A DNA stretch of 64,000 nucleotides from a bacterium (GCA_033763335.1 JANRKU010000016.1:6534-70533); one strand, 5' to 3'. Counted from the first letter of the stretch, positions 843-42,869 are shown. A program made the numbers and translations. Notes: generated by a model not told the origin, from the letters alone.

Positions 843-2173
843 CATGGCGAAGGGGTTGCAGTATTTTCTGCCGTTGGCATAGATGTGTTTTCTGGCGTAA
901 TTTCGGGTATAGCGGTTGGTGTGGCTTCTGCATCAGAAGAGAGTATCACCGTCAAATTAGTAGGTAAAATCGAAATATCCTGCGCCAAAATATCACTACG
1001 ACCACTGGCAATTTGGGGGACAGTGTCATATGTGCCTGCACCCTTGCCATTCATATCCACAATAATACGAATATCTGTCGCCGTCATGGTGTCCAGAATC
1101 GTCTGCGCCCCTGTGACCAATGCGGTCACTTTATCGGGAATCAGGCGCGGGGTCAACCCCTCTGCCACGCCAATTATATCCACCGTCACATTATCAAATT
1201 GACGGGTGGTGGTTTGGGCATCAATATTGACCAAAACTGTCACCAATGGGTTGCCCAATACAGATAGTGCCACATCATCTGGCAAAACAAGCGGTACTTG
1301 AACCTCAAAATCGGCAGTTTGACCGCTTAAATCAATCAATTGGGTGCGGAGTGTGTCGGGCAAATTGGCTAAATTTTGTGGTGAACCAATCACAAATACG
1401 GTTTGTGGGTCATAACTCACCGATATAATCACATATCCGGGCGTGAGGGTTTGTGTATCCAAATCGGGCGCAATTGCCAATTCTCGTAAATCATCGCGCC
1501 GACGAATTTCGACCACCGTCTGTACCATTTGCGGGTCTAATATGACATCATTCACGGTGCGCCCATCGGCATCTACAGGCACAAGGCGAATATCACCTGT
1601 ATAGGTTTCGCGTTGGGCGCTCAAATCTAAAACAGCACGCGCCGCCACCACTTGTTGCACACGGCTCGATGCACCACTAACACTGACGGTTTGAATGTTA
1701 AATTGTGGCTCTGTGCGGGTAAAATTGGTCGGTGGCTCATTCGTATCTGCGATAAATGCCACCACAGGCACAGATTGCGATTGCATTTCCTCTATGGTGA
1801 CTGTAATTTGGCGCGGTTGGGTATCGGCAATGGCTCGCCGCGAAATATCCGTTTGGAGTTCAATAGTATGTGTTCCAGCAGGGAGTCCGCGCAAATCGGC
1901 TCGCACAATAATATCTTCGCGGGAAAGGATATTGATGATAGATTGTGAACTGCGTACCGTGACTTGTGCATAGCGAGTCGCTTGCTCAATCAACAACATG
2001 CCTTCATCTAATTCCACCAAAATTGGCACTTGAGTATACCCACGTTCAATGATGGGGTCAGATTGGGTGCTTGATGATACCCAAATAAAAAAGGCGAGTC
2101 CCAACGAGGCTAAAAACCATACGATATTATTGACGAGGGGATTCGGAATCCATGTAGATTGAGTCGTTCTCAT
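842..2173 (-). CDS. cdaR: YbbR-domain protein (CdaR-like regulator of diadenylate cyclase)
   Basis: An N-terminal TM helix (IVWFLASLGLAFFIWV) is followed by repeated YbbR-type modules (e.g. VTVRSSQSIINILSREDIIVRADLRGLPAGTHTIELQ). The gene is directly downstream of cdaA. The ATG at 2173 gives an ATGA stop/start overlap; the track start at 2200 would overlap cdaA by 31 nt. Confidence 0.8.
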   Translation of the reverse strand: MRTTQSTWIPNPLVNNIVWFLASLGLAFFIWVSSSTQSDPIIERGYTQVPILVELDEGMLLIEQATRYAQVTVRSSQSIINILSREDIIVRADLRGLPAGTHTIELQTDISRRAIADTQPRQITVTIEEMQSQSVPVVAFIADTNEPPTNFTRTEPQFNIQTVSVSGASSRVQQVVAARAVLDLSAQRETYTGDIRLVPVDADGRTVNDVILDPQMVQTVVEIRRRDDLRELAIAPDLDTQTLTPGYVIISVSYDPQTVFVIGSPQNLANLPDTLRTQLIDLSGQTADFEVQVPLVLPDDVALSVLGNPLVTVLVNIDAQTTTRQFDNVTVDIIGVAEGLTPRLIPDKVTALVTGAQTILDTMTATDIRIIVDMNGKGAGTYDTVPQIASGRSDILAQDISILPTNLTVILSSDAEATPTAIPEITPENTSMPTAENTATPSP

Positions 2174-3036: not shown

Positions 3037-5319
3037 TTACTGTTGCTCTAAGTTAGAGGTCGTCCCTAATTTCACTAACAACCGCCGATAATCATCTATA
3101 TTATCTGGTTGTAGGGCGATAATTTTCTTAATCGTATTCCGTGCCTCAACATTCAAGCCCGCCTCAAGTTGCAATTCGCCCAACGCATCGAGTTGTGCAA
3201 TCGCTTCCATCTTGCGTCCCAATTGTTGATACAATTTTGCCAATCTATCGCGCAAGCCAAAATCATTGGCATAAGACCGCACCAATTCTTCGAGCAGTTT
3301 GGCAATTTTATTGATTTGCTTGGCTTTGGCAAAAATATTGAGTAATTTATCAAGATTTTTGGTCGCTTCTAGTTGATTATTTTGGCTATAGTGCAAATCA
3401 ATAAGGGCGCGATAGGCACGTTCATCTTCTGGCATCAAATCCAAAATTTCTTCGTATGTTCGCAAAGCACGGCGGGTATCAAGACGAATCTGATCCATAT
3501 CTGCCAAATTATGCTTAATTTCGACCAATTTCACGGGGTCAGAATTGAGGCGCTTGGCAGTCCGTTCTGCTTGTTGGAATGTCTCGCGGGAGAGTTCAAA
3601 ATTCCCCAATTGGTTATGTGTTTTTGCCAGCTCAATATATTGGTCGAGCATTTCATCGAAGCGTTCTTCACTTTCGAGCAACGCAATGAGGCTTGTCCGC
3701 ACCGAAATATCCAATGGAGCCATCTCTAGCACTTCTGCGAGGATGGATGTAGCACGGGCATTTTCGTCGCGCGACATATAGGCTTTGGCAATCACATTAT
3801 ATTTGTTGATGGCTTGGCGCAATCTGCCTTCACGCATCATGATTTCTGCCATCCGCACATGCAACGGCAGGTAATATGGCGAGGCGAGCATGGCATTATG
3901 ACATTCATCCATGGCGAGGGTGAGTAACCCACGTTGGATGTAATTATCAATACTGGCGAGGGTTGTCGCTAATTTCTCACTACCGCCTGTGCCTAAGAAG
4001 TCCACCACACCTTGTTCACCTTGGTCATGGAATACTTCTTCAAGATGCTTGCGTGTCTCTGCGACCCGCTTTTTCCAATCTGTCCCACTGAGCAAATCGG
4101 AGAAGCGTTGATTAATTGCCGCCAACATCTCATCTGAGCGCCCATCCAATGCTGTGAGCAGTTGGTTATAGGTGGCGGCGAGTTCTGCCTCTTCCTTTTT
4201 ATTTGCCGCGAGGAGTGCATCCACCGCCTGCAAACTTTGGATGAGAAAGCGCGAGGCTTGTTTTTGCTTGCCCAATTTATAATGCGCTAATCCCAGTGCA
4301 TGAAGCGCCCCAGATGCCAATTTTGGCTCTGTAACTGCCTCAGTGAGCGATTTAATCGCCAAGTCGTATTGTTCGGTGAGATAGAGCAATCCGCCCAAAT
4401 TGAGTTGTAAGGCGGGGTGGCGCATCTTGCCCTGTGCCGCTTTGGTATACGATTCAACCGCCTGTGGATATTGGCTTTGGCGTTGCAATTCCATCCCCTG
4501 CATGGCAGAGGCAGTTGCCATATCCATCGAACCGCTTTCCATCACATACGCCGCCAACATGCCCTGTGCTTCGGTCATGGCTTCGCCCAATGGACCAAGC
4601 GGGTCGGCATCGCCTACTTTTTTGCGAGCATCCACCATTTCTTCTTTGAATAAATCCAGAATACTTTGGTCTTCGGTGGTTTTTGGCTTAGAAACAGGCG
4701 GGGTGCTATCTGTGGGCAATGTTACTGCCCCACCAGAGCGCAATGCGCGGAGGGTATTCAGGGCTTGTGGGTTACGCTTATCCAGCCGTAGCGCCCGTTC
4801 CACCGCTTTAATCGCTTTATCAGTATCCCCCTGTCGCTGAAAATTGAAGGCAAGGGTCAAATATTCGCGCAATGCCCGTTTATTATCGCCAATACGTTCA
4901 TAGGCTTGCGCCAAACGTGCGTGAATGGTGATAAGACCGGGTGTTAATTGAGTGGCACGTTCCCAATTGCTGATGGATTTATCGAGGTCGCGTTGCCCAA
5001 GATAAACATCAGCCACTGTGATATACCGTTGTGCCGCCTCTTTTAAGCGCCCCATGCGTTCTAGCACATCTGCGCCACGTTCCAATGGTGTGGGGTCGTC
5101 TGGTGATAGTTGATGGGCGCGGTTATAGACCTTAAGCGCATCTTCCAAACGCCCTGCCTTGAGCAATGCCAACCCCAAATGGATATGGGCTTCGCCATCC
5201 TCGGGGATTTCTTGAATCGCATGGGAATAGGCTTTAATTGCGCCTACCCAGTTCTGTTCCCAAGCGGCATTATGCCCCAAGTTCATACTCTTTTGATATG
5301 TTTCGCGGTCTCCAGCCAT
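3037..5319 (-). CDS. tetratricopeptide (TPR) repeat protein, 760 aa
   Basis: Many 34-aa TPR-like units (A..Y..A....P....A...LG.......G....A). It sits 9 nt upstream of cdaA and 17 nt downstream of argF on the same strand. Confidence 0.8.
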   Translation of the reverse strand: MAGDRETYQKSMNLGHNAAWEQNWVGAIKAYSHAIQEIPEDGEAHIHLGLALLKAGRLEDALKVYNRAHQLSPDDPTPLERGADVLERMGRLKEAAQRYITVADVYLGQRDLDKSISNWERATQLTPGLITIHARLAQAYERIGDNKRALREYLTLAFNFQRQGDTDKAIKAVERALRLDKRNPQALNTLRALRSGGAVTLPTDSTPPVSKPKTTEDQSILDLFKEEMVDARKKVGDADPLGPLGEAMTEAQGMLAAYVMESGSMDMATASAMQGMELQRQSQYPQAVESYTKAAQGKMRHPALQLNLGGLLYLTEQYDLAIKSLTEAVTEPKLASGALHALGLAHYKLGKQKQASRFLIQSLQAVDALLAANKKEEAELAATYNQLLTALDGRSDEMLAAINQRFSDLLSGTDWKKRVAETRKHLEEVFHDQGEQGVVDFLGTGGSEKLATTLASIDNYIQRGLLTLAMDECHNAMLASPYYLPLHVRMAEIMMREGRLRQAINKYNVIAKAYMSRDENARATSILAEVLEMAPLDISVRTSLIALLESEERFDEMLDQYIELAKTHNQLGNFELSRETFQQAERTAKRLNSDPVKLVEIKHNLADMDQIRLDTRRALRTYEEILDLMPEDERAYRALIDLHYSQNNQLEATKNLDKLLNIFAKAKQINKIAKLLEELVRSYANDFGLRDRLAKLYQQLGRKMEAIAQLDALGELQLEAGLNVEARNTIKKIIALQPDNIDDYRRLLVKLGTTSNLEQQ

Positions 5320-6260: not shown

Positions 6261-6465
6261 TACCATGCCTTTATCGGGTGTTCTGCACAATATAAAGATA
6301 GTATAGCATCAATTACGCTATTTCGCATGAGGGGGATAAAAATCGCTCCCCACTCCATATACATCTTCATACCTATTTTAACGCAAAATTAGGATGATTC
6401 GCCACCATAAAATACAAAATGATGGGTAAAAGGGGCGCAAATTTAACTATGAAATTGCTCTTTTA

Positions 6466-6569
6466 CCTCACCCCCCTGCCCCCTTTCCAAATTGGAGAGG
6501 GGGAGAAAAGCATTTTGTAGGTCGGTTTAAGTCCCCTCGCCAGACTGGAGAGGGGATTTAGGGGTGAGG
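6466..6569. repeat. ~105-nt nested-hairpin intergenic element, copy A
   Basis: Outer stem CCTCACCCC...GGGGTGAGG encloses hairpin 1 (CCCCCTTTCCAAATTGGAGAGGGGG), a 29-nt spacer (AGAAAAGCATTTTGTAGGTCGGTTTAAGT) and hairpin 2 (CCCCTCGCCAGACTGGAGAGGGG). It lies 28 nt 3' of the polA stop. Confidence 0.85.
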
Positions 6570-6597
6570 TTTATTTCTTAAGTTGTCGCTTATAGTA

Positions 6598-9345
6598 TCA
6601 AGCCATATCGCGCCAATTCGTCCCAGATTCGGCATTAGCTTTGAGCCGTACCTTGAGAGGATACGCCCCCTCCATCACCCCCAAGACCATTGCCTGCACA
6701 TCGGCTAAATGGGCATTTGGCACTTCTAAGACCAATTCGTCATGGACTTGGAGCAACATATTCGCGCCGTGTCCATCGGTTTGTAACACCCTATCCAATT
6801 CAATCATGGCGCGTTTCATAATATCCGCCGCCGACCCCTGAATCGGATGATTAATCGCCGCCCGCAATTCTGCCTCTTCGGTCTGTTTATTGGCTTTGGG
6901 GTCTTTGAATATGGGGAAATAGCGCCTACGCCCAAAAAGCGTCTCCACAAACCCTTCTTCCCGTGCCTGCTTTTTGGTGTCGTTCAAATACCGTTCAACA
7001 TCGGGCAGGCGCTTGAAATAGGTATCTATGAATTTTCGCGCTTCGGCTAGGGTCAGGTCACTATCGCGTGCCAGCCGATACGCTCCCATGCCATAAATCA
7101 GCCCAAAATTGACGCGCTTGGCAAAACTACGTTGCTCGTATGTCACCGCATCCAGCGCAATCCCAAACACTGCCGCCGCCGTTGCCGCATGAATATCTTC
7201 ATCGCGCGAAAAGGCTTCTAACAGCGTTTCATCGTTGCTCACATGCGCCAAAACACGTAATTCGATTTGGCTATAATCCACCGAGAGCAATTGATACCCC
7301 TCTGGCGCGATAAATGCCCGCCGTACTTCGCGCCCCAATTCGGTGCGAATGGGGATATTTTGCAGGTTGGGATTGTTGCTACTCAAGCGCCCTGTGTTCG
7401 TCCCTGTCTGATTATAACTGGTATGCAAACGGCGCGTATTGGGGTTCACCAGCTTGGGGAGCGCATCAATATACGTCCCTTTCAGCTTCACCAACTCCCG
7501 ATATTCGATGATGGCGCGGATGATTTTATCGCCCGTATCCTCATAGAGTTTTTCCAGCGTGGCGGCATCAGTCGAAAATCCGAGTGTCGTCTTTTTTAGC
7601 CCTACGGTGGGCAATCCCATCGTATTGAACAGCACATCGCTCAATTGCTTGGGGCTATTGATGTTAAAATTCTCGCCACTCATCTCATAAATTTTACCTT
7701 CGGCGGTGCGTACTAGCGCATCCACCCGCGTGCTAAGTTCTGCCAGATATGCCACATCCAACAAAACGCCATTGCTCTCCATCCGTCCCAAAACAGGGAT
7801 GAGGGGCAATTCTAATTCCATATACAAATCCATCATGCCCATCGTGGTCAATTCTTCGACCAAAAAACGCCATGCAAGGTAGGTTATGGTCACATCAGCC
7901 GTTGCATACACCCCCGCTTTTTCGACAGGCACTTGTGCCATCGTGATTTGCTTTTTGCCTGTGCCGATGAGTTCATCAATGGATGTCATCTTTTTATGCA
8001 GATATTTGGTCGCAAACCGCTTTAATCCCAAAAAGCGACTATCAGGATTCCGCACCCACTCGGCAATCATGGTATCAAATGCCAATGGGAATACCTCTAT
8101 GCCATGCCGACGCATCACCACACAGTCATAACTGGCATTATGCGCCACTTTGGGGATAGTGGGGTTGGTCATCGCGGGGCGGATGGCATCCATCACCACC
8201 GCCAGAGTCAATTGTGATGGGGCTGGTGACGGAAACAATGTATTTGCCCCCTCCCCCAAATGCCCAACAGGGATGTAATATCCCTTTTTCTCATCCATCG
8301 CCAACGCAATGCCCACCAAATCCACCGTCATCTGGTCAATGCCTGTGGTCTCGGTATCGAACATAATCGCACCCGCAGAATTGAGGTGTACTACTAATTC
8401 TGCCAATTTTTCTGATGTATCCACAATCACTGTTTCATAGACATGCGGTTCTACACTCTCAAAATCGAATTGGGTGTGCAAAGAACGGAAGGTCTCGCCC
8501 AATGTGACGAATTCCATTTTTTCAAAAAATTTATTCACCGCGTTAGGGTCGTAATCTTCGGTCTTACACGCCTCTAAATCCAATTGAATCGGCACATCCC
8601 GAATGATACGGGCAAGTCGTTGGCTGACAAAAGCACTTTCGCGCCCATCTATCAACTTTTGGCGCAATTTTTCTGGGATTTCATGCAGATGGTCATAGAG
8701 TGCCTCTAATGTGCCATGTGCTTGTAGCAGTGTGGTCGCCCCTTTTTCGCCAATACCCTTTACCCCTGGGATGTTGTCGGATGTATCGCCCACCAACGCC
8801 TTATAATCCACCAATTGACGGGGCGAAATGCCCCATTTTTCGATGAATAGGTTGGTATCATATACAATATCTTCTTTGGCAGATGGCAATTGCACCCGCA
8901 CATGATTATCGAGCAATTGCAATAAATCTCTATCGCCTGTGATGACATGCACCAACACATTTTGGGGTTTGGCTTGGTCTACCAATGTACCGATAATATC
9001 ATCTGCCTCAAAGCCATCTTTGGTCAAAATGGGGATATTAAAGGCGCGGATGAGTTCAAAAATGCTCTCCATCTGCGAATCAAGGCTTTCTGGCATATCA
9101 TCCCGATGCGCTTTATAGGCGGGATAATACTCCTCGCGCCCACTCAATCCTTTATCAAAACACACGGCAATATATTGGGGTTGCTGATTTTTGAGCAAAT
9201 CTATCAACAACCGCGCAAATCCGAACACAGCATTGGTCGCCTCACCTGTGCGCGGATGCACCATGCGACTATATGCCATCCCATGAAATTGACGGTAAGC
9301 GATGGCATGACCATCTAACACATATAAAATTGGCGGAATCGCCAT
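6598..9345 (-). CDS. polA: DNA polymerase I
   Basis: 915 aa. It has a 5'-3' exonuclease N-terminus (GDTSDNIPGVKGIGEKGA), a 3'-5' exo-like region (IMFDTETTG), and polymerase motifs DYSQIELRVLAH, RSFAKRVNFGLIYG and QVHDELVLE. Confidence 0.97.
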   Translation of the reverse strand: MAIPPILYVLDGHAIAYRQFHGMAYSRMVHPRTGEATNAVFGFARLLIDLLKNQQPQYIAVCFDKGLSGREEYYPAYKAHRDDMPESLDSQMESIFELIRAFNIPILTKDGFEADDIIGTLVDQAKPQNVLVHVITGDRDLLQLLDNHVRVQLPSAKEDIVYDTNLFIEKWGISPRQLVDYKALVGDTSDNIPGVKGIGEKGATTLLQAHGTLEALYDHLHEIPEKLRQKLIDGRESAFVSQRLARIIRDVPIQLDLEACKTEDYDPNAVNKFFEKMEFVTLGETFRSLHTQFDFESVEPHVYETVIVDTSEKLAELVVHLNSAGAIMFDTETTGIDQMTVDLVGIALAMDEKKGYYIPVGHLGEGANTLFPSPAPSQLTLAVVMDAIRPAMTNPTIPKVAHNASYDCVVMRRHGIEVFPLAFDTMIAEWVRNPDSRFLGLKRFATKYLHKKMTSIDELIGTGKKQITMAQVPVEKAGVYATADVTITYLAWRFLVEELTTMGMMDLYMELELPLIPVLGRMESNGVLLDVAYLAELSTRVDALVRTAEGKIYEMSGENFNINSPKQLSDVLFNTMGLPTVGLKKTTLGFSTDAATLEKLYEDTGDKIIRAIIEYRELVKLKGTYIDALPKLVNPNTRRLHTSYNQTGTNTGRLSSNNPNLQNIPIRTELGREVRRAFIAPEGYQLLSVDYSQIELRVLAHVSNDETLLEAFSRDEDIHAATAAAVFGIALDAVTYEQRSFAKRVNFGLIYGMGAYRLARDSDLTLAEARKFIDTYFKRLPDVERYLNDTKKQAREEGFVETLFGRRRYFPIFKDPKANKQTEEAELRAAINHPIQGSAADIMKRAMIELDRVLQTDGHGANMLLQVHDELVLEVPNAHLADVQAMVLGVMEGAYPLKVRLKANAESGTNWRDMA

Positions 9346-9370
9346 AGGGGTATTCCTTTCTAATTTTTCA

Positions 9371-9475
9371 CCTCACCCCTAAATCCCCTCTCCAAATTGG
9401 AGAGGGGACTTGAACCCATTTTATAGGTGGAATTTCTCCCCTTCTCCAGACTGGAGAAGGGGTTGGGGGATGAGG
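9371..9475. repeat. ~105-nt nested-hairpin intergenic element, copy B
   Basis: CCTCACCCC TAAAT CCCCTCTCCAAATTGGAGAGGGG ...CCATTTTATAGGTGG... CCCCTTCTCCAGACTGGAGAAGGGG TTG GGGGATGAGG. It lies 22 nt 3' of the stop of the 9498 gene and 25 nt upstream of the polA start. Confidence 0.85.
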
Positions 9476-9497
9476 TTAAGGGATAAAAGGTGGTTTT

Positions 9498-11621
9498 TTA
9501 CGCGACAGAAAATGCGATAAATTGCTCAATTTCGGTATGTTGCATCTCACGTCCGGGGGCAAGGACACAATAACTTTCTGCCCATAGCCCATTTAACGGA
9601 AATTGCCTATCTACATGGTGAATAATCCACGCCGAGCGTTGTTTGAGGTCGTTAATCACCACATGGGGCGGGGTTTCGCTCGGTGTTTTTGCCAATAAAT
9701 AGATATATGTCTCTTGCACCACCAAGGTGGTGATGGTGATGCCCATTTCGGTCAATTGGCGTTCCAATTCGCCCCTCAAAACATCACGTAATTGGGGCGA
9801 TAAGGCACTATCGGGATGCGCCAAGCGCCACACATACGTGAATGGGGCGGGTGTGCCACTATACACAGGATAAGGTAAATCTGGAATTTGCCATTGTTGC
9901 ACCGCTTCGATGGTGCTTGGCAATGCCAACGGCTCTAATTTGATAGGAATTGGCGTGAAGGGGTCAGAATCGTCTAATGGCACATCAGATAATTGCGCCA
10001 ATGAAGATTCCCAATGTGCTACCGCCACCTCAAGTTGCTCCAGCTCCCGTTCTTGCAATTCATCTAAAATAGATGGGGTATTCTGGGGGATTTCTGGCAC
10101 ACTTTGGAGCGCACTCAACAGCCTATCTGATTGTTTCCGCATAGCACGCAGGGGAATTGACCCGCCAAATACCATCGCTAGGGTGTATTTGCCCGCCGCC
10201 AACCGCGAATAGACCATGTATTCCTGCCCGCTAATGGGCAATGTGATAAATTTGAGTCGCGCTTCGTCGGGTTGTGCATCGCCATCATCAGCCAAAAATT
10301 GTACCAATTGGGCAATTTCCAAATCGGGCAATTCACCCGCATGAGCCACCATTTTGCCATTTTTGATGAGCAAGGTCGCATCTGCCGAAAGTTCTAGCGA
10401 TGTTTGCGTCAAGGTGAGCGCCAATTGTGCCGTTGGCGAGGTGTCTGTTGGCACAATATCGGCAACAGGTGGTGGCGGGGGGCTAATCGGCATTGGAGGC
10501 AGTGGGGATTCTGCTGGTTTGCGTTGCTTGGGCAATGATGTGGGTTTAGGCGGTTTTGGATGTTCTTTGGGATAGCGGTCTGTCTCTAGATCGTGCGGAT
10601 TTTTGACTACATCCACCGAACTTTGGGCATGGGTGGTCGCATTGGCACTATCGGTATTGGGTTCTAAAACGATGCTCAAAAAATCGGGTTCTTTGATATA
10701 TTTTTCGAGGTCTTGTCGCCATCCAAAGGGTAATTTTTGTGCGGGACTATCATTTGCCAGTGTGTCAATTAATTTACCGATGACCACCTGCAACGATTGT
10801 GTGTCATCATGCGTTTCGCGCAAAATATGTTGTGCGGGAATATTCTCTGTGGCTTGATTCGCTATTTCGCCACTGGGCAAAAGAGGCATATACGGTGTGA
10901 GGGCTTCTTGTAATACCGCATTCACACGCCCCAAATCCACCTGCCCCACCACATCGCGCAAATCGGCAACGGTGCCAATTTCTTCGAGTGTGGGCATGGG
11001 GGGTTCTTCTGCCGCTAATTGCTTAAAGAGGATGTCATCATGAGGGTTTTCGTCTAATTCTGCCCCATCGCCCTTAAACACCACTTCCAATGAAATGGGG
11101 CTTGCATCACCACCACCCAAAAAGGTCGCATTCCCCATCTGTGTGAGGACTTCATCCAATTTATTGGGCGGTAGTGACATTTTGAGCGTGTCCGATTCAT
11201 CGCCCATGGGGAGTGCTTCGGATGTATCGGGCAAGGCATCGTTATAAATCATCTTTTTGAGGATGGGCAACAAGTCGCGTAATGACATGGGGACATCTAC
11301 CACCCCATCCAAATTTAATTGACGCGCCATCGTCATAATAGCGGGCATGTGCGGACTCGCCAAAATGCGTATATCAGGGGATATAGCACGAATCCGCGAG
11401 ACCAATTCTTGCCCGTTCATACTCGGCAAGCCAAATTCCACAATCGCAATATCATGTGGACGCGCCCGCAACAGCTCTAATGCCGCATCGGGTGTGGTAA
11501 AAGAAGATACCTCAAATTCACTAGTACGCTCTAGGGCTTGTTTCATCCCTAATAATGCGGAGAGGTTCTTGTTTATCATCAATATGTGGATTATGGAAGT
11601 TGCCATAGTATCCCATTCCAA
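9498..11621 (-). CDS. multidomain signalling protein: pseudo-receiver + Pro-rich linker + Roadblock/LC7-like + inactive IS200-like (Y1) transposase fold
   Basis: aa 10-124 have a CheY-like pattern with the key residues replaced (ILMINKN, DIAIVEFGLPSMNG, VVDVP). aa 403-506 are Roadblock-like. aa 593-707 are collinear with IS200/IS605 TnpA (FTYVWRL, VQETYIYLL, LKQRS, GLWAESY, EIEQFI). The start is either TTG 11621 or ATG 11606. Confidence 0.6.
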   Translation of the reverse strand: MEWDTMATSIIHILMINKNLSALLGMKQALERTSEFEVSSFTTPDAALELLRARPHDIAIVEFGLPSMNGQELVSRIRAISPDIRILASPHMPAIMTMARQLNLDGVVDVPMSLRDLLPILKKMIYNDALPDTSEALPMGDESDTLKMSLPPNKLDEVLTQMGNATFLGGGDASPISLEVVFKGDGAELDENPHDDILFKQLAAEEPPMPTLEEIGTVADLRDVVGQVDLGRVNAVLQEALTPYMPLLPSGEIANQATENIPAQHILRETHDDTQSLQVVIGKLIDTLANDSPAQKLPFGWRQDLEKYIKEPDFLSIVLEPNTDSANATTHAQSSVDVVKNPHDLETDRYPKEHPKPPKPTSLPKQRKPAESPLPPMPISPPPPPVADIVPTDTSPTAQLALTLTQTSLELSADATLLIKNGKMVAHAGELPDLEIAQLVQFLADDGDAQPDEARLKFITLPISGQEYMVYSRLAAGKYTLAMVFGGSIPLRAMRKQSDRLLSALQSVPEIPQNTPSILDELQERELEQLEVAVAHWESSLAQLSDVPLDDSDPFTPIPIKLEPLALPSTIEAVQQWQIPDLPYPVYSGTPAPFTYVWRLAHPDSALSPQLRDVLRGELERQLTEMGITITTLVVQETYIYLLAKTPSETPPHVVINDLKQRSAWIIHHVDRQFPLNGLWAESYCVLAPGREMQHTEIEQFIAFSVA

Positions 11622-11654
11622 GTGAACGCCTGTCCTAAATATTATAGCACATTT

Positions 11655-13871
11655 TTACGGTGTGATGACAACTAATTCACTTTCATCGCCATTCAAAGTA
11701 ACACTGACATTCTTCACAATCCACCCTGTTTCGCCTTGATAGGTGATGGCATACCAGTCGCCATCAGGCGAAATTCCTATCACATCCACTGTCGCATCAA
11801 TGAGTGACCCCAAGCGTGTTGAATCGGATTGTGGGGCAGAACGCACCCATGCGCCCAATCGGTCAATCGTAACAGTCAAATTTCCCCCTACCACTGGTAA
11901 TAGGCTCTCATTGCCATTTAACTGTATGCTCGAATTTTTCACAATCCAAGCCAAATTGCCTTCAAATTCAATCTGATACCAATCGCCATCTGCTGATATA
12001 CCGATAACAGGGATAGTTTCGTTGATGATAGCACCCAACCGTGTTGATTCTGCGTCTGGCGCTTCCCTCACCCACGCTCCCAAACGGTCAATTGTGACAG
12101 TCATGCTTTGCGATTCTGCCACGACAACAGGCACAAGCGATACATCGCCTAAAAGGGTCACGCTAGATGTATTTTGTATCCAGCCAATTTCACCCTGATA
12201 TGGCACCCCATACCACTCGCCATCTGCCGACATACTAACGACTTCCACACTATCGTCAATGATAGACCCCAACCGTGAGGCACTAGAATCGGGTTGTGAG
12301 CGTACCCATGCCCCAAAGCGGTCAATTTGTAGCATAACGGTAGTAGATGCGGGTGTCTCAGTCGGTGGCATAGGTGTATAAGAGGGCAAGGGTGTATTGG
12401 TAACACGAATCGCCGTCTCAGTCGGTGGGACAGGTGTATAAGAGGGCAAAGGCGTATTGGTGATAAGAAACGGTGTTTCTGTCGGTGGTTGTGGTGTATA
12501 GGATGGTAAGGGTGTATTCGTCACACGCACAGGAATATCTGTCGGTATAATTTCTGGTGTTTCAGTCACTTCTGCGCTGATAGGTGTAGATGATGTGACA
12601 TTATCGCCCATCGTCTGTGCTGTTTGTGTGGCAAAAATAATTTCTGCAATGCGGGTCATTTCGATGACTACCGCCGTTTCGGTAATATCCACAGGGGTAA
12701 TAATTGGTTCATCGGTACGCAAAATCACGACAGAGGAATCATTCGTGCCTGTTGGGGAAAGCGCAATAATATCATCATTATCACCCGTGTTGTTGTTGGA
12801 TAGCAACAACACAATCACTGCCCCAATGAGGAGTAAAATAACCGCCGCCATCCCAAAAACCAACCCGCTATTGCGTTTTTGTGTAGGTGGCGGGGGATAC
12901 ATCCCACCAGCCCCCGTAGACATATATTGTGGTGGGGTTGCATAGGGTTGTGGCGCTGGTGCAAAATTTGCCTGTTGCTTAGGCGGAACTTTGAATACAA
13001 AAAAGTTGGTTTCTCCGCCCTTTTGTCCCTCAATGGCACTCTCAAAGGCTTGTGCGAATGCCGTACACGATTGAAAGCGGGCTTTAGGGTCTTTTGCCAA
13101 TGCCCGTGCAAGGACTAAATCCAACGCAGGGGGCAAATCTGTCCGCAAAATCGTGAGGGGAGTGGGCATTTCATGGAGGTGTTTGTTCAATAACTGAAAT
13201 GGGGTCGTTGCTTCAAATGGCTCACGCCCTGTCACAGCGATATAAGCCAATACCCCTAATGAATATTGGTCGGTGGCAGGAAAAACTTCATCCCCACTCC
13301 ATTGTTCGGGTGCCATATAGGTCGGTGTGCCAACCGCCATACCCGTCCCCGTGAGTTTATTGGTGGCATTCATCAATTTGGCGATACCAAAATCCACCAA
13401 ATACGAATTTCCCTGATTATCAAACATGACATTGCTGGTTTTTATATCCCGATGGATGACACCCCGATTATGGGCATAATCTAAGGCGCTGGCGAGTTCT
13501 CGCAATAATTTTGCCGTCTCACCGAGCGATGGCAATCCGCGATTATCGGCTTGTGCCTGATTAATCCGTTCTGCCAATGTGCCACCCGTGAGCAGGCGCA
13601 TGACCACATAACTAATCCCGCGTTGGGTGCCATAATCTACAATTGGGACGATATGGGGATGCTCTAATGCGGCAGATGTTTCGGCTTCGCGGGTGAATCT
13701 TTCGATATACCCCGGTTGTTGTGCCAGTGTGGATGGCAACACTTTGACCGCAACTTCGCGCTTGAGTGCCGTCTGAAATCCGCGATAAACCGACCCCATC
13801 CCCCCCACACCGAGCAATTCGCGTAATTCGTATTGTCCGAGCATCTGCCCTTTTAGGTTATCACTACCCAT
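11655..13871 (-). CDS. Ser/Thr protein kinase with one TM helix and an extracytoplasmic 3x SH3b-like domain
   Basis: Hanks kinase motifs GVGGMGSV, VAVKVL, HRDIKTSN, DFGIAK and YMAPEQ. TM helix GLVFGMAAVILLLIGAVIVLLLS. Three TNTPLPSYTPxPPTET repeats. Three ~75-aa repeats of the form IDRLGAWVRS.P...S.RLG..I......V.G.S.DG.WY...Y.G..GWI. Confidence 0.9.
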   Translation of the reverse strand: MGSDNLKGQMLGQYELRELLGVGGMGSVYRGFQTALKREVAVKVLPSTLAQQPGYIERFTREAETSAALEHPHIVPIVDYGTQRGISYVVMRLLTGGTLAERINQAQADNRGLPSLGETAKLLRELASALDYAHNRGVIHRDIKTSNVMFDNQGNSYLVDFGIAKLMNATNKLTGTGMAVGTPTYMAPEQWSGDEVFPATDQYSLGVLAYIAVTGREPFEATTPFQLLNKHLHEMPTPLTILRTDLPPALDLVLARALAKDPKARFQSCTAFAQAFESAIEGQKGGETNFFVFKVPPKQQANFAPAPQPYATPPQYMSTGAGGMYPPPPTQKRNSGLVFGMAAVILLLIGAVIVLLLSNNNTGDNDDIIALSPTGTNDSSVVILRTDEPIITPVDITETAVVIEMTRIAEIIFATQTAQTMGDNVTSSTPISAEVTETPEIIPTDIPVRVTNTPLPSYTPQPPTETPFLITNTPLPSYTPVPPTETAIRVTNTPLPSYTPMPPTETPASTTVMLQIDRFGAWVRSQPDSSASRLGSIIDDSVEVVSMSADGEWYGVPYQGEIGWIQNTSSVTLLGDVSLVPVVVAESQSMTVTIDRLGAWVREAPDAESTRLGAIINETIPVIGISADGDWYQIEFEGNLAWIVKNSSIQLNGNESLLPVVGGNLTVTIDRLGAWVRSAPQSDSTRLGSLIDATVDVIGISPDGDWYAITYQGETGWIVKNVSVTLNGDESELVVITP
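12357..12536. repeat. in-frame 60-bp tandem repeat (3 units) inside the kinase gene
   Basis: Units start at about 12357, 12417 and 12477 (GTCTCAGTCGGTGG.AYAGGTGTATAAGAGGGCAARGG.GTATTGGT...). They encode the Pro/Thr-rich TNTPLPSYTP.PPTET linker repeats. Confidence 0.85.
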
Positions 13872-13992
13872 CGTGATTATCTCCCATGATGATGTTCCCC
13901 AAGCCCCTCTATTTTAGCCCGTCTGAGCGATATGGGCAACCAAATCATGATAGAATAATGACATACACCATTTCTATATGAGGATTTTGGCG

Positions 13993-14571
13993 ATGCTAAC
14001 CGATAACCCCCAAATTGATTTGCGCGAAGGCATGTCACTAGACGATTTTTTGCGCCAGAGCAACGACCAACCATTTGAACTGATAGATGGACGAAGGATA
14101 GATAAGATGCCATCAGGATTACCGCATAATGTGATTTTGCGTGCCATTTTTCGCTTGTTAGACCCATTTGTCGTACAAAACGATTTAGGCGAGGCGTTTG
14201 CAGAAAACGCATTTATCATAGAGGAACGTACCAATTGGGTACGCGGGTCGCGGGTGCCAGATATTGCCTTTTATCGTAAAGCACGAATTCAACACATTAT
14301 GACCGCCATGCCCGCGGTGATTCCTATCGTTCCTGATTTGATTATCGAAATTATCTCCCCCACTGATTCGTATGATGATATTCAATTGAAAACTATTTTT
14401 GATTTAGACAATGGTGTAAAAGCCATTTGGATTATAGACCCAGTGAACCATAGTGCATGGGTCTATACCCCTGATACGATGCGCCCGCAACGCTTTGGCG
14501 AAGATGGCGTGTTATCTGCACCCGATATTCTGCCAAATTTCACGCTGGAATTAAGTAAAATCTGGGCATAA
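13993..14571 (+). CDS. Uma2 family (DUF820) PD-(D/E)XK-type endonuclease
   Basis: Motifs FELIDG, GSRVPDIAFY, VPDLIIEIISPTD and NGVKAIWIIDP. The ATG at 13993 lies 8 nt after GAGGA. The track start is 13978. Confidence 0.85.
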   Translation: MLTDNPQIDLREGMSLDDFLRQSNDQPFELIDGRRIDKMPSGLPHNVILRAIFRLLDPFVVQNDLGEAFAENAFIIEERTNWVRGSRVPDIAFYRKARIQHIMTAMPAVIPIVPDLIIEIISPTDSYDDIQLKTIFDLDNGVKAIWIIDPVNHSAWVYTPDTMRPQRFGEDGVLSAPDILPNFTLELSKIWA

Positions 14572-14633: not shown

Positions 14634-15827
14634 TTACGGTGCGTTGGTCACAGTGACATTAATTGACCCCGTATTATTCACCTCATTGCCCTCTGCAATC
14701 GTATTGCCTGTATCGGCTTGGAATTGCAGAATATAGGTGTTTGCAGAGGTAAAAGTCACATTCACTGTGAGGCTGATGGTCTGCCCTGCCGCCAAATTGC
14801 CAACCACGCCCAAATCTTGTTGGGTGTTATTTGGCAAAATGAACAAGATATTGTTGAATTGGGTGTTAATGGCATTGCCATTATTGGTGATATTCACACC
14901 ATATTGCACCGTGACCTGTGTCTGCCCTGCGGGGATTGTCACCGCCGTTGGACCCGTGATATTGCTCACCACCAAATCGCCCGGAGTCGGTGTAAAGGTC
15001 GGCGCGGGTGTATTCGTTGGCACATTCGGCGTAAAGGTTGGTGCAAGGGTCGTAGTCGCAAATGGGGTTGGGGTGGCGGGAGGTGCTTGTGCAGGAATGG
15101 TCGCACATTGCGTCCCATAGAGGTTGATATATGGTGTGGTTTCGGGTCCACGAGCCACCCAGCCCAATGTGCCGTTATTATCACGCAATTGCCACCAACT
15201 GTTATCACTCAACCGTGCCACGACAGGCAATAATTCACCCGCCGCGAGTGTGCGAACCACATCAAAATTGGTGCTGGGACCACGGCGCAAGCGCAATGCC
15301 GTCATCACCAATGCGCGACAAGTCGGGTCGTTGGGATTAATCACAGGTTGGGTTGGACCCGGTTGTTGCACGGGCGTTGATGTGACCTGAACACTGGTTT
15401 GGCGGATAATCACGCGCACTTCGGCAGGGTCACTCACAACAGAACTACCGCCAACACCACGCACAGCCGTCACACTGAGGACAACTTCGCCTGCGGTACG
15501 GGGGGTATAATCGAGCAAAACCTGTTTATTGGTCTCCCCTGTAGGTGATTCTGACCCCACAGTGCGGACATTCGTGCCATTGGCAGATAAACGCACGCTG
15601 GTCACGCCAACCGTATCGGTCACTTGAACACTCATCAAAATGGGGGTATTAACCACAAATTCTTCTCCGCTTTGTGGAGAAAGAATGGTCACAACGGGTT
15701 TTCCTGTATTAGCTTGATTGGTTGGGGTTGGGGTCACACGAGAATCATTGCTTTCAGCATCGAGATTACATGCCGCCAAAATGCACATTATCCCCAAAAG
15801 GAGTATAAATCTAAGTAATCGTGTCAT
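14634..15827 (-). CDS. secreted lipoprotein with Ig-like, SH3b and CARDB-like domains
   Basis: Signal peptide plus lipobox from the ATG at 15827 (MTRLLRFILLLGIMCILAAC). SH3b-like segment RLRRGPSTNFDVVRTLAAGELLPVVARLSDNSWWQLRDNNGTLGWV. Pro/Thr linker. C-terminal CARDB-like GDLVVSNITGP...NITNNGNA... Confidence 0.6.
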   Translation of the reverse strand: MTRLLRFILLLGIMCILAACNLDAESNDSRVTPTPTNQANTGKPVVTILSPQSGEEFVVNTPILMSVQVTDTVGVTSVRLSANGTNVRTVGSESPTGETNKQVLLDYTPRTAGEVVLSVTAVRGVGGSSVVSDPAEVRVIIRQTSVQVTSTPVQQPGPTQPVINPNDPTCRALVMTALRLRRGPSTNFDVVRTLAAGELLPVVARLSDNSWWQLRDNNGTLGWVARGPETTPYINLYGTQCATIPAQAPPATPTPFATTTLAPTFTPNVPTNTPAPTFTPTPGDLVVSNITGPTAVTIPAGQTQVTVQYGVNITNNGNAINTQFNNILFILPNNTQQDLGVVGNLAAGQTISLTVNVTFTSANTYILQFQADTGNTIAEGNEVNNTGSINVTVTNAP

Positions 15828-15912
15828 AGTTTTTATCCTACACAAACACAACAAGCCCTACCAAAAATGATGCTGTAGGGCTTGATGCGAAATGAACAAA
15901 TAAGAGCAGGTG

Positions 15913-16545
15913 TTAGCTAATCGGTTCTTTGTAGATGACATATTTACCCATTTCATCGCCCTTTGCGATGCAGTGGGTCATATCCACCTTAAATTCATGC
16001 CCACCAGAAACCCAGCGAAGCCCTTCTTGCAAAAGCCCCTGCCCAACGAAGCACACTGGCTTGTCGGTAGTACGCCCCCAACACATTGGGCAACGCTCTA
16101 AGGTGTAGATGATACGGTCTGTACCCTCTTCATACACATTAGAAATTTGGTCAGAAAATTGATTAAAAATGTTTGCCATGGCGGGAACCCCGATTTTGAG
16201 TTTCGCATTCATCGGAAGCACCTTAAAGGCAAGGTCGCCAACACCAGCCAGCGCCCCAAATCCACGTAACGCATCAGCAAAGGTTGCACGACCAGCACGC
16301 AACGCCAAGCCACGTCCACCACGCGGTCCATACATTTCTTCCAGCGCCACGTTCAAAGCGGTATAATCGGCAAAATCATATTCTTTATCGAGGTTATCGG
16401 GGGGATAATTGCCGATGAGCGTACTCAACTGCGCCCGATGTAGAATGGCGTTCAACCCATTCGTCCCCATGATTTCTTCCATCGCTTCAATCGTGATGCG
16501 GGCGAATTTATTTGGATAATAAAACCCGCTTTTCTCTTTTGCCAT
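15913..16545 (-). CDS. V4R (4-vinyl-reductase-like, COG1719) domain protein
   Basis: The C-terminal pattern ERCPMCWGRTTDKPVCFVGQGLLQEGL....HCIAKGDE fits the V4R Cys/Gly signature. Confidence 0.65.
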   Translation of the reverse strand: MAKEKSGFYYPNKFARITIEAMEEIMGTNGLNAILHRAQLSTLIGNYPPDNLDKEYDFADYTALNVALEEMYGPRGGRGLALRAGRATFADALRGFGALAGVGDLAFKVLPMNAKLKIGVPAMANIFNQFSDQISNVYEEGTDRIIYTLERCPMCWGRTTDKPVCFVGQGLLQEGLRWVSGGHEFKVDMTHCIAKGDEMGKYVIYKEPIS

Positions 16546-16646
16546 TGTGGCTCTTCCTCCAATCGGTGTGCAAAAACCAACCGTGGTTCATAATTTTTCT
16601 AAAGCGTCTATACGATAACACAGGTTGCCAAGACTAGCAAATCTAT

Positions 16647-18020
16647 TTAAGAAAATACTAGTAATGGGTCTGAACTTGCCTCAACTTGTGGCAACCGTCC
16701 TTGTAGGCTCCATGGACTTGTCCATGTAATTTCCACATCAACGAGTTTGCCCCTAAAATCCCCCTCAGCATCAAAAAACACGAGCTTATTTTGAGGGGTT
16801 CTACCACGCCATCTGTCTTTGTGAAGGTCTTCCACTAACACCTGTACATGTTTACCCAATAATGTGGCATTTTTCTCTGCCAAAATTTGGGCTTGCAGGG
16901 TATCTAACATCTCATAACGGCGACGCTTTTCATCTTCTGGCACATCATCTTGCATACGGCGGGCGCTCACCGTATTGGGACGCGGGCTATACCGCGCCAA
17001 ATGCACCTTATCTAAGCGTAGTTCCGCTAAGGTTTGGTAGGTATCCATGAATTGCGCTTCGGTCTCGCCAGAAAAACCAACAATAATATCGGTGTGAATG
17101 GCGACATCTGGAATTGTAGCACGGATTTTGTCTACCAACTGCCGATATTGTGCATTGGTATATCCGCGCTTCATATTTTCTAATACTTGGTCATTACCCG
17201 CTTGTATAGGCACTTCAATTTGGGGCATCACACGGGGCAAATCTGCCACCGCTTGAAGCAGTTTGTCGGTCATCCAATTGGGATGGCTCGTCAAAAAGCG
17301 AATTCGCTCTACCCCTGTTTCTTCTGCCACATCATTTACCACGCGCAATAAATCGGCAAGGTCGGGACCGTCTTCAATATCTTTGCCATAACGGTCTACA
17401 ATTTGACCCAACAGGGTGACTTCTTTTACCCCCTGCAAGGCAAGGCTACGAACATGCGCCACAATTTCGCCAACACTACGGCTACGTTCTACCCCCCGCC
17501 GAAACGGGATGATGCAGAATGTACACGCATGGGAACACCCATATACAATTGGCACATGGGCGCTAATCAAATTACCTTGTTCATGAGACGGCAACAATAA
17601 ATCACCATCTTGTACCAAATCACGCTCATGACGCGATTTTTCTTCGTAGGCGAGCAATTCCGCCTCATCCATGCGGTCTTTCAGAAATTCGACCATCGGC
17701 GCGGGTTCCGATGGGGGCATGAACACATCTACGAAAGGCAACTTTTTACGCAGGTGGAGGGGGTCTTTCATCCCAACCATACATCCCATGACACTGATAA
17801 TTTTTTCTGGGAATTCCTTTTTTACATCACGGAGCAAATACAACCGCCCCATCGCTTTATCCTCAGATGTCTGACGGACAACGCAGGTATTCACCACAAA
17901 AATATCAGCTTCATCAGGGTTCTCTGTAGCAGAATGACCCATACGCTCTAGCTCCGAAGCCAGCCGTTGGGAATCTGCCATATTCATCTGACAACCAAAA
18001 GTCCAAATATGATACTGCAT
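16647..18020 (-). CDS. miaB: tRNA (N6-isopentenyl-A37) methylthiotransferase MiaB
   Basis: MTTase N-terminus IWTFGCQMNMADS, radical-SAM CSHACTFC, and a C-terminal TRAM-like region. Confidence 0.93.
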   Translation of the reverse strand: MQYHIWTFGCQMNMADSQRLASELERMGHSATENPDEADIFVVNTCVVRQTSEDKAMGRLYLLRDVKKEFPEKIISVMGCMVGMKDPLHLRKKLPFVDVFMPPSEPAPMVEFLKDRMDEAELLAYEEKSRHERDLVQDGDLLLPSHEQGNLISAHVPIVYGCSHACTFCIIPFRRGVERSRSVGEIVAHVRSLALQGVKEVTLLGQIVDRYGKDIEDGPDLADLLRVVNDVAEETGVERIRFLTSHPNWMTDKLLQAVADLPRVMPQIEVPIQAGNDQVLENMKRGYTNAQYRQLVDKIRATIPDVAIHTDIIVGFSGETEAQFMDTYQTLAELRLDKVHLARYSPRPNTVSARRMQDDVPEDEKRRRYEMLDTLQAQILAEKNATLLGKHVQVLVEDLHKDRWRGRTPQNKLVFFDAEGDFRGKLVDVEITWTSPWSLQGRLPQVEASSDPLLVFS

Positions 18021-20749: not shown

Positions 20750-21358
20750 CTACATCCATATTTTAGTAAGTTCCAGCTTAAAATTGGGCAGGAGTGTTTC
20801 TTCTGTGAGGATACCTTCTGCCCCAAATACCACAGGACTATCCCCATCAGGGGTATATACCCATGCTTTACGCAATAGAGGGTCTATGAGCCATACCACT
20901 TTTACACCGTTGGCTAAATCCAAATAGGCTTTTTCATTCACTTTGCTAAACATATCTGTATGTGATATGACTTCAATCACCATATCAGGCACTATTGGCA
21001 TGGGGCGTTTTATCCAATCAGGTGTATTTTGAAAATATTCAGCAACACGAGTGCCCTCAAAAAGCATAATATCAGGAATTCGTGAACCACGTACCCAATT
21101 GGCATCATTTCGGTCAGGTGTAATATATGTTGTCTCTTGATAAACACGCCCCCAATTGTGTTCTGAAACATAAAAATAAAACAAAAAAAACACCCGTTGC
21201 AATATCTCGCTATGCAACATCCAATTTGGCATTTGATATACCCTCTCCCCATTGATAATTTCAAATGGCTTTTCATTCGCCTCACGCAGGTAATCTTCTA
21301 ACAACATCCCCTGTTGTATATCAGTTTGTGAATTGTCTGTTATCATGATTTGTCCCAT
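20750..21358 (-). CDS. Uma2 family (DUF820) endonuclease
   Basis: Motifs FEIINGE, GSRIPDIMLF, VPDMVIEVISHTD and NGVKVVWLIDP. Its start codon abuts the stop of the upstream paralog. Confidence 0.85.
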   Translation of the reverse strand: MGQIMITDNSQTDIQQGMLLEDYLREANEKPFEIINGERVYQMPNWMLHSEILQRVFFLFYFYVSEHNWGRVYQETTYITPDRNDANWVRGSRIPDIMLFEGTRVAEYFQNTPDWIKRPMPIVPDMVIEVISHTDMFSKVNEKAYLDLANGVKVVWLIDPLLRKAWVYTPDGDSPVVFGAEGILTEETLLPNFKLELTKIWM

Positions 21359-21964
21359 TTACATCCATATTTTGGCAAGTTCCAGCTTAAAATTGGGCAG
21401 GAGTGTTTCTTCTGTGAGGATACCTTCTGCCCCAAATACCACAGGACTATCCCCATCAGGGGTATATACCCATGCTTTACGGCGGGTTGGGTCTATAAAC
21501 CATACCACTTTTACCCCATTGGCTAAATCATAGCTCACTTTTTCATCCATCAGGCTGAATGTGTCGTTTGGTGATAAAATTTCGATTGCCAAATCGGGGA
21601 CAATCAACATAGGGGTAGATTGCCAATCGGGATGGTCACGAAAATATTGGTCTAAACGATTACGGGTATAGAATATAATATCTGGCGCACGAGACCCCGT
21701 CACCCAATTGCTATCATAGCGTTCTGGAAGAATATATGCCATCTCTGGAAAAGATTCCCCTAAACCATGTTGAATCACATAAGATTCAAGTGTAAACAAT
21801 ATAGCTTTGAGTATTCTTGTATGTAAGGTCATTGGTGGCATTTTATATAGTCTCTCCCCATTGATTATTTCAAAAGGCTTTTCGTTTGCCTCGCGCATAT
21901 AGTCCTCTAAAGACATCCCCACGCGCACATCGGGTTTGGGTTTTTCAGAAATCATGGTGAACAC
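21359..21964 (-). CDS. Uma2 family (DUF820) endonuclease, tandem paralog
   Basis: Motifs FEIINGE, GSRAPDIIFY, VPDLAIEILSPND and NGVKVVWFIDP. The last 40 aa match the downstream copy at 39 of 40 positions. Confidence 0.85.
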   Translation of the reverse strand: MFTMISEKPKPDVRVGMSLEDYMREANEKPFEIINGERLYKMPPMTLHTRILKAILFTLESYVIQHGLGESFPEMAYILPERYDSNWVTGSRAPDIIFYTRNRLDQYFRDHPDWQSTPMLIVPDLAIEILSPNDTFSLMDEKVSYDLANGVKVVWFIDPTRRKAWVYTPDGDSPVVFGAEGILTEETLLPNFKLELAKIWM

Positions 21965-31332: not shown

Positions 31333-31360
31333 GTAAGGGCGCAACCTGTTGCGCCCTTAC
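31333..31360. repeat. REP-like palindrome, family 2 (GTAAGGGCGCAAC-N-GTTGCGCCCTTAC)
   Basis: GTAAGGGCGCAACCTGTTGCGCCCTTAC, 21 nt after the permease stop. Related copies occur at 54530, 43002, 19094 and, in degenerate form, 39428. Confidence 0.8.
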
Positions 31361-31379
31361 ATGTTACCCGCTTATTCGT

Positions 31380-42851: not shown

Positions 42852-42869
42852 TATTTAGATAGCAAAATC

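Follow-up and report, generated by a model that had tools for sequence, protein, structure and literature searches.

A bacterial protein that joins a pseudo-receiver and a Roadblock-like fold to an IS200/IS605 TnpA fold lacking its catalytic residues

A gene on the minus strand of a 64,000-nt stretch of bacterial DNA (GCA_033763335.1, JANRKU010000016.1:6534-70533; hereafter the window) encodes a protein that begins like a response regulator and ends like a transposase. The question raised by this locus is whether the transposase-like part is a decaying remnant of a mobile element, a nucleic-acid-binding module still at work, or a fold that has been taken over for another purpose. A preliminary description, made from the sequence alone, had proposed a fusion of a dead receiver, a Roadblock-like module and a domesticated, inactive Y1 transposase fold, linked to a Ser/Thr kinase and possibly able to bind hairpins. 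The possible answers were studied through the composition of the protein, its homologues and its genomic surroundings.

An IS200/IS605 TnpA fold without its catalytic residues

The gene and the elements of its C-terminal part are the following (residues are numbered throughout on the 707-aa open reading frame, ORF, counted from the TTG at 11621):

9498..11621, minus strand: whole ORF, 707 aa from TTG 11621, with the stop codon at 9498-9500 (ORF translation)
9501..9851, minus strand: exapted, catalytically dead IS200/IS605 TnpA fold, aa 591-707 (Pfam, PDB profile, AlphaFold2 and Foldseek)
9699..9707, minus strand: Y639-I640-Y641 in place of the HUH motif (aligned with the DHIHLF segment in 2f4f)
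9549..9557, minus strand: P689-G690-R691, family-specific near-invariant motif (78/80), its Arg inserted relative to TnpA
9519..9521, minus strand: F701 at the catalytic-Tyr position (alignment to kkYIe)

The ORF is real, as the preliminary description had it, and a public protein of 702 aa ('MAG: response regulator [bacterium]') is 100% identical to it. Since this record and the close homologues all begin MATSII..., the true start is probably the ATG at 11606 (M6 of the 707-aa ORF), giving 702 aa and a gap of 48 nt, instead of 33, to the kinase gene upstream. The modules follow each other in the order pseudo-receiver, acidic Pro-rich linker, Roadblock/LC7 fold, second linker and C-terminal TnpA fold. 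The protein is soluble and very acidic, with a net charge of -46, no transmembrane segment and a maximum 19-residue hydropathy of 1.27.

First of all we considered the C-terminal domain. Pfam Y1_Tnp (PF01797) matched aa 597-702 with 27.5 bits (cut-off 23) and also matched 29 of 30 homologues. When a profile of the family was compared with the PDB sequences, significant E-values were obtained only for IS200/IS605 TnpAs (2f4f, 1e-13; ISDra2, 4e-8; IS608, 4e-6), among which 2ec2 and 2fyx were also matched. In addition, the AlphaFold2 (AF2) model of the domain had a predicted local distance difference test score (pLDDT) of 93.6, and its top 30 Foldseek matches in the PDB, the best with E=4e-8, were all TnpA or RAYT (4er8). 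Sequence and structure thus bear out the Y1-like region that had been proposed. The RAYT structure 4er8 was the weakest match among the Y1 structures (E=1.8e-4, TM-score 0.59) and was missed by the sequence search; for this reason the domain is considered closer to IS200-type TnpAs than to RAYTs.

The catalytic residues could be located from the HMMER alignments to the solved TnpAs, in which DHIHLF stands over 'edyvyll' and kkYIe over 'qrFin'. Therefore, the HUH motif corresponds to Y639-I-Y641 and the catalytic Tyr to F701, exactly as the preliminary description had assigned them. Among the 80 distinct family sequences used for the residue counts of this domain none had an intact HUH: its first position was Y in 61, F in 14, C in 3 and H in 1, and its last position was Y in 75 and His in none. 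The catalytic-Tyr position was F in 66 and Y in 14, i.e., the Tyr is not conserved. By contrast with this loss, W598, W680, Y684, P689-G690-R691, E697 and F704 were each conserved in 78-80 of the 80 sequences. From these counts, the nuclease chemistry was lost once and early, in the ancestor of the family, with HUH becoming Y-[VI]-Y and the catalytic Tyr becoming Phe or Tyr. The replacement residues are constrained in their turn, purifying selection having since maintained the old active-site region with a new set of conserved positions (Y-x-Y, PGR, E697 and F704).

A Tyr at the first HUH position is also present in the Deinococcus radiodurans protein DR_0177 (PDB 2fyx, 'putative transposase'), which has DYVHLL where TnpAs have DHIHLF. 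This protein, which was the best structural match of the domain (TM-score 0.77, root mean square deviation 3.4), may be another partly degenerate TnpA.

The likeness to the IS200/IS605 TnpAs (2f4f; ISDra2, 2xm3; IS608, 2a6m) comprises homology at the profile level, the fold (TM-score about 0.7) and several core motifs, namely the W of 'YHxVW', 'LW..SY' and 'K..S'. However, the domain studied here has neither HUH nor a conserved catalytic Tyr, and it is acidic rather than basic: across the family its median net charge is -9 and its isoelectric point (pI) 4.6, whereas the aligned parts of Sulfolobus TnpAs have a net charge of +7 and a pI of 9.4. Furthermore, TnpAs are proteins of about 130-160 aa, while here the fold is the C-terminal domain of a single-copy, syntenic and vertically inherited protein of 650-1470 aa. 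The RAYTs (TnpA-REP; 4er8) resemble it as host-resident, single-copy TnpA relatives, and the window also contains palindromes like the repetitive extragenic palindromic (REP) elements. RAYTs are domesticated and retain HUH and Tyr, being active nucleases. Both features are lost in the family, which moreover does not co-occur with the REP families of the window.

The distribution of the family was studied by several searches. A word-indexed search gave 42 homologues of 417-1122 aa, for which Pfam records Response_reg in 36 and Y1_Tnp in 24. When one genome per GTDB species was scanned, with the FKQLAAEEPPMPTLEEIGTVADLR motif described below as search pattern, relatives were present in 93 genomes. 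Of the 78 listed, two are named as 'bacterium' and the others as Chloroflexota/Chloroflexi or as lineages of the Anaerolineae (Anaerolineae, Anaerolineaceae, Aggregatilineales and Phototrophicaceae). All three modules were found in 75 of the 85 fetched loci, and the remaining ten comprised nine cut by contig ends and one with an apparently broken frame. With HMMER, the profile of the dead Y1 domain gave 648 matches at E<=1e-3 in 1.84 billion representative proteins (331 at <=1e-10 and 187 at <=1e-30), and in all of the 150 best representatives the domain ended within a few residues of the C-terminus. All these results establish that the family is single-copy and vertically inherited, with a fixed architecture.

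The ratio of nonsynonymous to synonymous substitutions (dN/dS, Nei-Gojobori) within the window's clade was 0.03-0.07 for the receiver, 0.04-0.24 for the Roadblock domain and 0.09-0.17 for Y1. These ratios are rough, since dS is partly saturated (about 0.8-1.9 for most pairs, and 2.4-3.2 or incomputable for a few). At about 0.1 overall, they indicate a family under purifying selection and not decaying. This bears on another explanation of the locus, in which chance or a mis-assembly joined an IS200 tnpA pseudogene to the gene of a response regulator. The lost catalytic residues would fit it, and so would the disagreement of the public names ('response regulator' or 'transposase', and even 'RayT' as JGI COG name). 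However, the same architecture recurs in independent loci and in the 187 clusters of the strictest threshold, the substitutions are constrained, the replacement residues and the synteny are conserved, and the model has a high pLDDT, so that we give this explanation practically no weight.

Neither does the gene belong to a mobile element: the window has a single copy of it, and the fetched loci agree in its syntenic position. No second Y1 copy was found in the window, where tnpB and insertion sequence ends were not searched for directly. The gene is flanked there by polA and the kinase gene, and in the family by polA together with either the kinase or a lipoprotein gene. The preliminary description of a domesticated, inactive Y1 fold is thus sustained by single copy, synteny, purifying selection and, judging from the alignments, the lack of catalytic residues in every member examined; the conservation of the architecture beyond the window, with no signs of decay, agrees with it.

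The new conserved residues suggested a further use of the domain. The Y-x-Y on the old HUH strand, the inserted PGR, and a Glu and a Phe conserved on what was the catalytic helix could line a candidate pocket, in which case the old TnpA active site would have been rebuilt to hold a peptide, a nucleotide or a small ligand. The pocket would be coupled through a Roadblock dimer to an Anaerolineae-specific assembly centred on a nucleoside triphosphatase (NTPase), for example in envelope or filament organisation. We regard this as a tentative proposal, to which we give about one chance in four; if true, an IS200/IS605 TnpA would have been exapted as a non-catalytic signalling or scaffold module.

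Pseudo-receiver, Roadblock fold and linkers

The rest of the protein contains these elements:

11247..11594, minus strand: pseudo-receiver, aa 10-125 (Pfam, profile alignment to Spo0F/CheY, family residue counts)
10437..11246, minus strand: acidic, Pro-rich linker, aa 126-395 (composition: net charge -25, 13% Pro)
10956..11027, minus strand: invariant short motif FKQLAAEEPPMPTLEEIGTVADLR, aa 199-222 (invariant alignment columns)
10677..10733, minus strand: second conserved motif LPFGWRQDLEKYIKEPDFL, aa 297-315 (E-P-D-F-L at least 90% conserved)
10086..10436, minus strand: Roadblock/LC7-fold domain, aa 396-512 (AF2, Foldseek, sub-threshold MglB sequence matches)
9852..10085, minus strand: second acidic linker, aa 513-590 (alignment and composition, net charge -12)

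The receiver assignment was confirmed by Pfam, whose Response_reg model (PF00072) matched aa 14-117 with 36.6 bits, above the curated cut-off of 30.2. The family profile matched Spo0F (E=2e-13) and was also aligned to CheY. In these profile alignments the acidic pair (CheY D12/D13) is N17/K18 in the window protein, the phospho-Asp (CheY D57) is E62 (codon 11436-11438), the Thr/Ser position is S89, and the Lys that precedes the cis-Pro (CheY K109) is V110; the three replacements read by the preliminary description are therefore upheld. In the 74 distinct family sequences counted for this domain, the acidic pair was never DD, its first position being N, H or T in 72 and its second R, K, Q, P or others. 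K was found at the Lys position in 0 of 74, and the Pro following it was retained in 67. The phospho-site itself is D in 68 sequences and E in 4; Glu is confined to the window's clade, and homologues elsewhere mostly retain Asp. Pseudo-receivers are common and act without phosphotransfer, and a Glu at the Asp position can mimic phosphorylation (PMC12632262).

The Roadblock-like region gave a different result. Pfam Robl_LC7 (PF03259) had no match in the full protein at E<=1, nor in any of 30 isolated homologous domains even at E<=10, and the comparison of the family profile with the PDB sequences yielded sub-threshold matches only, MglB being 7 of the 12 listed (best E=0.068, range 0.07-1). However, the AF2 model of aa 396-512 (pLDDT 80.8) had the topology a-b-b-a-b-b-b-a, and Foldseek found 63 PDB matches at E<=1e-3 (best E=2.8e-5). 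The 50 listed were all Roadblock or longin platform proteins, with TM-scores of 0.53-0.74 among the matches listed. They included LAMTOR2/p14, the Myxococcus xanthus and Thermus MglB, Streptomyces 3kye, the Rag C-terminal domains, the yeast EGO complex, CPLANE and Mon1-Ccz1. The Pfam negatives and the structural matches together indicate that, according to the model, the resemblance to Roadblock is real at the level of the fold and is not membership of the sequence family. Of the preliminary description of this region the fold thus stands; membership at sequence level was rejected, only the fold-level test having succeeded. No Roadblock paralogue was found elsewhere in the window.

The linkers differ greatly in length among homologues, and the alignment is gapped there except at the motifs. 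Within FKQLAAEEPPMPTLEEIGTVADLR, E206-P-P-M-P210, D220 and L221 are invariant across 38 sequences (the EEPPMP island). Ser and Thr make up about 13% of the linkers, and the first linker is presumed disordered on account of its composition.

Proposed role and relation to known systems

The reading that we prefer, to which we assign a probability of roughly 0.5, is that the protein is a phosphorylation-independent acidic scaffold or adaptor whose Roadblock and TnpA modules act as a dimeric docking platform. It would be a soluble and very acidic molecule; the Roadblock and TnpA-derived modules, both coming from folds that work as dimers, would jointly form the platform, the invariant linker motifs (EEPPMP and EPDFL) would recruit partners, and the pseudo-receiver would offer a surface for binding or switching, without Asp phosphorylation to drive it. 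As leading guess, and by analogy with the layout of RomR-MglC, such a platform might assemble or regulate an NTPase-centred complex. In the window's clade, the inserted membrane Hanks kinase and the D62E change may add an input or replace one, with Ser/Thr phosphorylation as the lineage-specific candidate.

Several points weigh against this reading. The dimeric platform is deduced from the ancestry of the folds, as the presumed disorder of the linker is from composition and alignment gaps only. A tblastn search with an MglA sequence as query found no small GTPase gene in the window or within 8 kb of the gene at the 85 homologue loci. On this negative, which is a weak one, the idea of such a partner encoded nearby was dropped. 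The conserved neighbours (a secreted lipoprotein, polA and miaB) share no common theme, and their synteny may reflect inheritance rather than shared function. Finally, some TnpA-typical basic residues are kept ('DLKxRS', matching 'fKGkSa', plus the invariant R691), so the old active site may still bind nucleic acids or nucleotides.

Among known proteins, the scaffold reading finds its closest counterparts in Myxococcus. RomR combines a receiver with a disordered region and with a Glu-rich tail docking on the Roadblock dimer MglC, which binds MglB (PMC10329633), and FrzS has a receiver without the phospho-Asp that acts without phosphorylation (PMC1974792). The protein studied here is like them in having a receiver without acidic pair and Lys, an acidic linker and a Roadblock fold, all of them in one chain. 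Unlike them, it carries an extra dead-transposase domain, belongs to a different phylum and has no known MglA module at its locus; in addition, no coiled coil or Glu-rich helix was identified in it, and a sequence relationship to them was shown for the receiver fold only. With MglB/MglC, LAMTOR2/p14 and the CvnB-type 3kye it shares the a-b-b-a-b-b-b-a fold, MglB giving the best sub-threshold sequence matches. It differs from these proteins in the missing Pfam Robl_LC7 match, in that the fold is embedded in a large protein and in that no cognate small GTPase gene was found nearby.

The exaptation of transposon proteins is well documented, as in TnpB/IscB (Cas12, Cas9 and TldR), Cas1 and the still-active RAYTs. 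TldR is reported to be a nuclease-dead, TnpB-derived transcription factor exapted from IS200/IS605 (PMC10705468). Both are IS200/IS605 proteins without catalysis that have acquired a host function; TldR, however, derives from TnpB and keeps RNA-guided DNA binding, whereas no nucleic-acid binding is evident in this family. Full-text literature searches brought up no account of a multidomain cellular protein carrying a dead TnpA domain, and none of a Chloroflexi protein in which a receiver is fused to Roadblock; a broad survey of TnpA-Y1 proteins explicitly discarded long fusion proteins (PMC6006769). The databases already tag both Pfam domains automatically, and therefore the architecture was visible but uninterpreted. 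The reuse of a transposase fold as a structural module within a protein of the cell thus appears to have gone undescribed in this form. That an exapted transposon protein is combined here with a pseudo-receiver is solid, while how the combination works is inferential. The case is a clean one, with a datable loss of chemistry in the family ancestor, later conservation of the replacement residues and fusion to two regulatory folds. For the pseudo-receivers, which are poorly understood (PMC12632262), it represents a further and unusual output architecture. In practical terms, the 'transposase' label on the family could inflate the counts of mobile elements in these genomes.

Neighbouring genes and palindromes

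The features surrounding the gene in the window are:

6598..9345, minus strand: polA, usual immediate downstream neighbour (locus survey)
11641..11649, minus strand: TGCTATAAT, extended -10-like element (TGnTATAAT) between the kinase stop and the start of the gene (direct reading)
11655..13871, minus strand: Hanks-type Ser/Thr kinase with a transmembrane segment, three Pro/Thr repeats and three SH3b domains (clade-specific insertion)
14634..15854, minus strand: Big_7/SH3_3/CARDB lipoprotein gene, ancestral immediate upstream neighbour (Pfam; lipobox LAAC from the translation)

The ancestral order is MiaB, a 210-aa V4R protein, the Big_7/SH3_3/CARDB lipoprotein, the gene, PolA, OTCase, a TPR protein and CdaA, and it persists at loci whose proteins are only 26-30% identical to that of the window. 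Of 69 informative loci, at least 53 had a CARDB-like gene on the same strand and no more than 600 nt upstream; polA was on the same strand and no more than 600 nt downstream in at least 43 of 73. Both are minimum counts, since some starts were misplaced by partial tblastn matches.

The Ser/Thr kinase that had been described just upstream is indeed there, with intact VAVK, HRD and DFG motifs and its stop codon at 11655-11657; the spacer of 33 nt has to be corrected to the 48 nt given by the probable start. Nevertheless, a kinase gene immediately upstream is restricted to the window's clade (at least 71% identity): it is found in the window, in L004 and in L086/L087 (designations of fetched loci), and in L008 and L009 the contig edge still shows its 3' end. 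Outside the clade no kinase adjoins the gene, and kinase matches were obtained only in three loci, on the opposite strand. Consequently, the context surveys did not support 'kinase-linked' as a property of the family, and it was rejected as a family trait.

The three distant loci (L006, L053 and L083) have a Pkinase+SH3_3 gene 5.7-6.3 kb downstream, and in L006 the kinase gene is near one encoding an FHA/TIR protein (12415-13671 and 15072-17987). Given the many kinases of Chloroflexota, this proximity may be due to chance.

A dedicated relationship was still conceivable, in which the protein would be the cytoplasmic target of the upstream membrane kinase and Ser/Thr phosphorylation would replace that of Asp. 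The co-directional kinase, 48-56 nt upstream in the window, L086/L087 and L004, the intact motifs and the Ser and Thr content of the linkers are in line with it, and so is the fact that the kinase and the D-to-E change at the phospho-site occur in the same clade only. However, L010, inside the clade (78% identity), has lost the kinase, reduced to its last codons beside a Uma2 gene, and keeps the studied gene intact. In addition, CCGTAAAAATGTGCTATAAT, comprising the kinase stop codon followed by TGnTATAAT, is identical in four clade members, and this conservation suggests that the gene has its own promoter in the window's clade. A two-hexamer promoter scan did not report the element, which has no good -35, so the promoter call is based on conservation only. 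Moreover, the insertion carries Uma2 genes, and the matches of both kinase and Uma2 to defence-system models suggest a variable islet. We therefore judge a dedicated kinase-substrate role improbable, and it can hold for the narrow clade at most.

The other observation on which the preliminary description had relied, the presence of REP-like hairpins in the window, was verified: at least three families of palindromes of 23-31 nt were found. Two of them have four copies each, of 28-31 nt and perfect or near-perfect. The family GTA.GGGCTTGCCATGGCAAGCCC.TAC is located at 811-841, 31378-31408, 51963-51993 and 60950-60980, and the family GTAAGGGCGCAAC.TGTTGCGCCCTTAC at 31333-31360, 39424-39451, 43002-43029 and 54530-54557. 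A compound element of about 110 nt has an outer inverted repeat that encloses two hairpins, CCCCTCTCCAAATTGGAGAGGGG and CCCCTTCTCCAGTCTGGAGAAGGGG, and resembles a bacterial interspersed mosaic element (BIME) or a miniature inverted-repeat transposable element (MITE). Its copies are at 6440-6571, 9366-9477 and 63944-64000 (partial at 42868-42909), and flank polA on both sides.

It was then asked of these palindromes whether the dead Y1 fold might still grip single-stranded DNA or RNA hairpins as its output, possibly at the replication fork. The domain has the hairpin-binding fold of TnpA, the 'LK.RS' segment and the invariant R691 are conserved, the compound palindrome 9366-9477 is 21 nt downstream of the gene, and a different REP-like copy (GTAAGGGCGCAAC.TGTTGCGCCCTTAC family, 4173-4192) occupies the same spot just after the homologous gene of L010; polA is, besides, the usual downstream neighbour. 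However, the domain and the whole protein are acidic, as stated above. Furthermore, the palindrome families of the window were absent from the 88 homologue loci save that one copy, yet the protein is conserved across the class. Since the compound palindrome also recurs after polA and elsewhere in the window, it marks intergenic space and not the gene. These data do not support the hairpin binding that had been put forward, which we hold to be an unlikely function, and the scaffold reading remains preferred.

The following observations concern the genes upstream. In the kinase gene, the extracellular part (11751-12277 and 12352-12546) contains a 60-nt unit that encodes TNTPLPSYTP.PPTET and is repeated three times in tandem, and also three SH3b repeats, each about 75 aa long. 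A recent duplication between these SH3b repeats and the SH3b domains of the CARDB lipoprotein was rejected, since BLASTP gave only 24.6 bits. The kinase domain reached up to 297 bits against the PADLOC PD-T4-6 models, which is probably generic kinase-domain similarity; as the studied protein had no PADLOC match, its membership of a defence system was rejected.

Four paralogues of the Uma2 family (putative restriction endonucleases) are present in the window, at 13978-14571 (plus strand) and at 20750-21358, 21359-21964 and 24275-24850 (minus strand). Parts of their DNA show 72-98% identity. Two of the paralogues form a tandem pair and one is located within the kinase insertion; PADLOC candidate defence models (PDC-S03) were matched by the copy at 13978-14571. 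In L010 (1-2060), the place of the reduced kinase gene is taken by a Uma2 gene (1282-1860, minus strand), and the interval between the studied gene and that of the lipoprotein behaves like a hot spot for insertions.

Finally, the 210-aa V4R protein of the ancestral order is encoded at 15913-16545 (minus strand). Its assignment ('4-vinyl reductase' or 'predicted hydrocarbon binding') comes from a weak Pfam match and the source names, and a search of solved structures gave nothing significant. This protein, which has a CPMC...C motif, is 80-90% identical across Anaerolineae (4976 clusters), far more conserved than its neighbours, and its gene adjoins miaB in nearly all the fetched loci.

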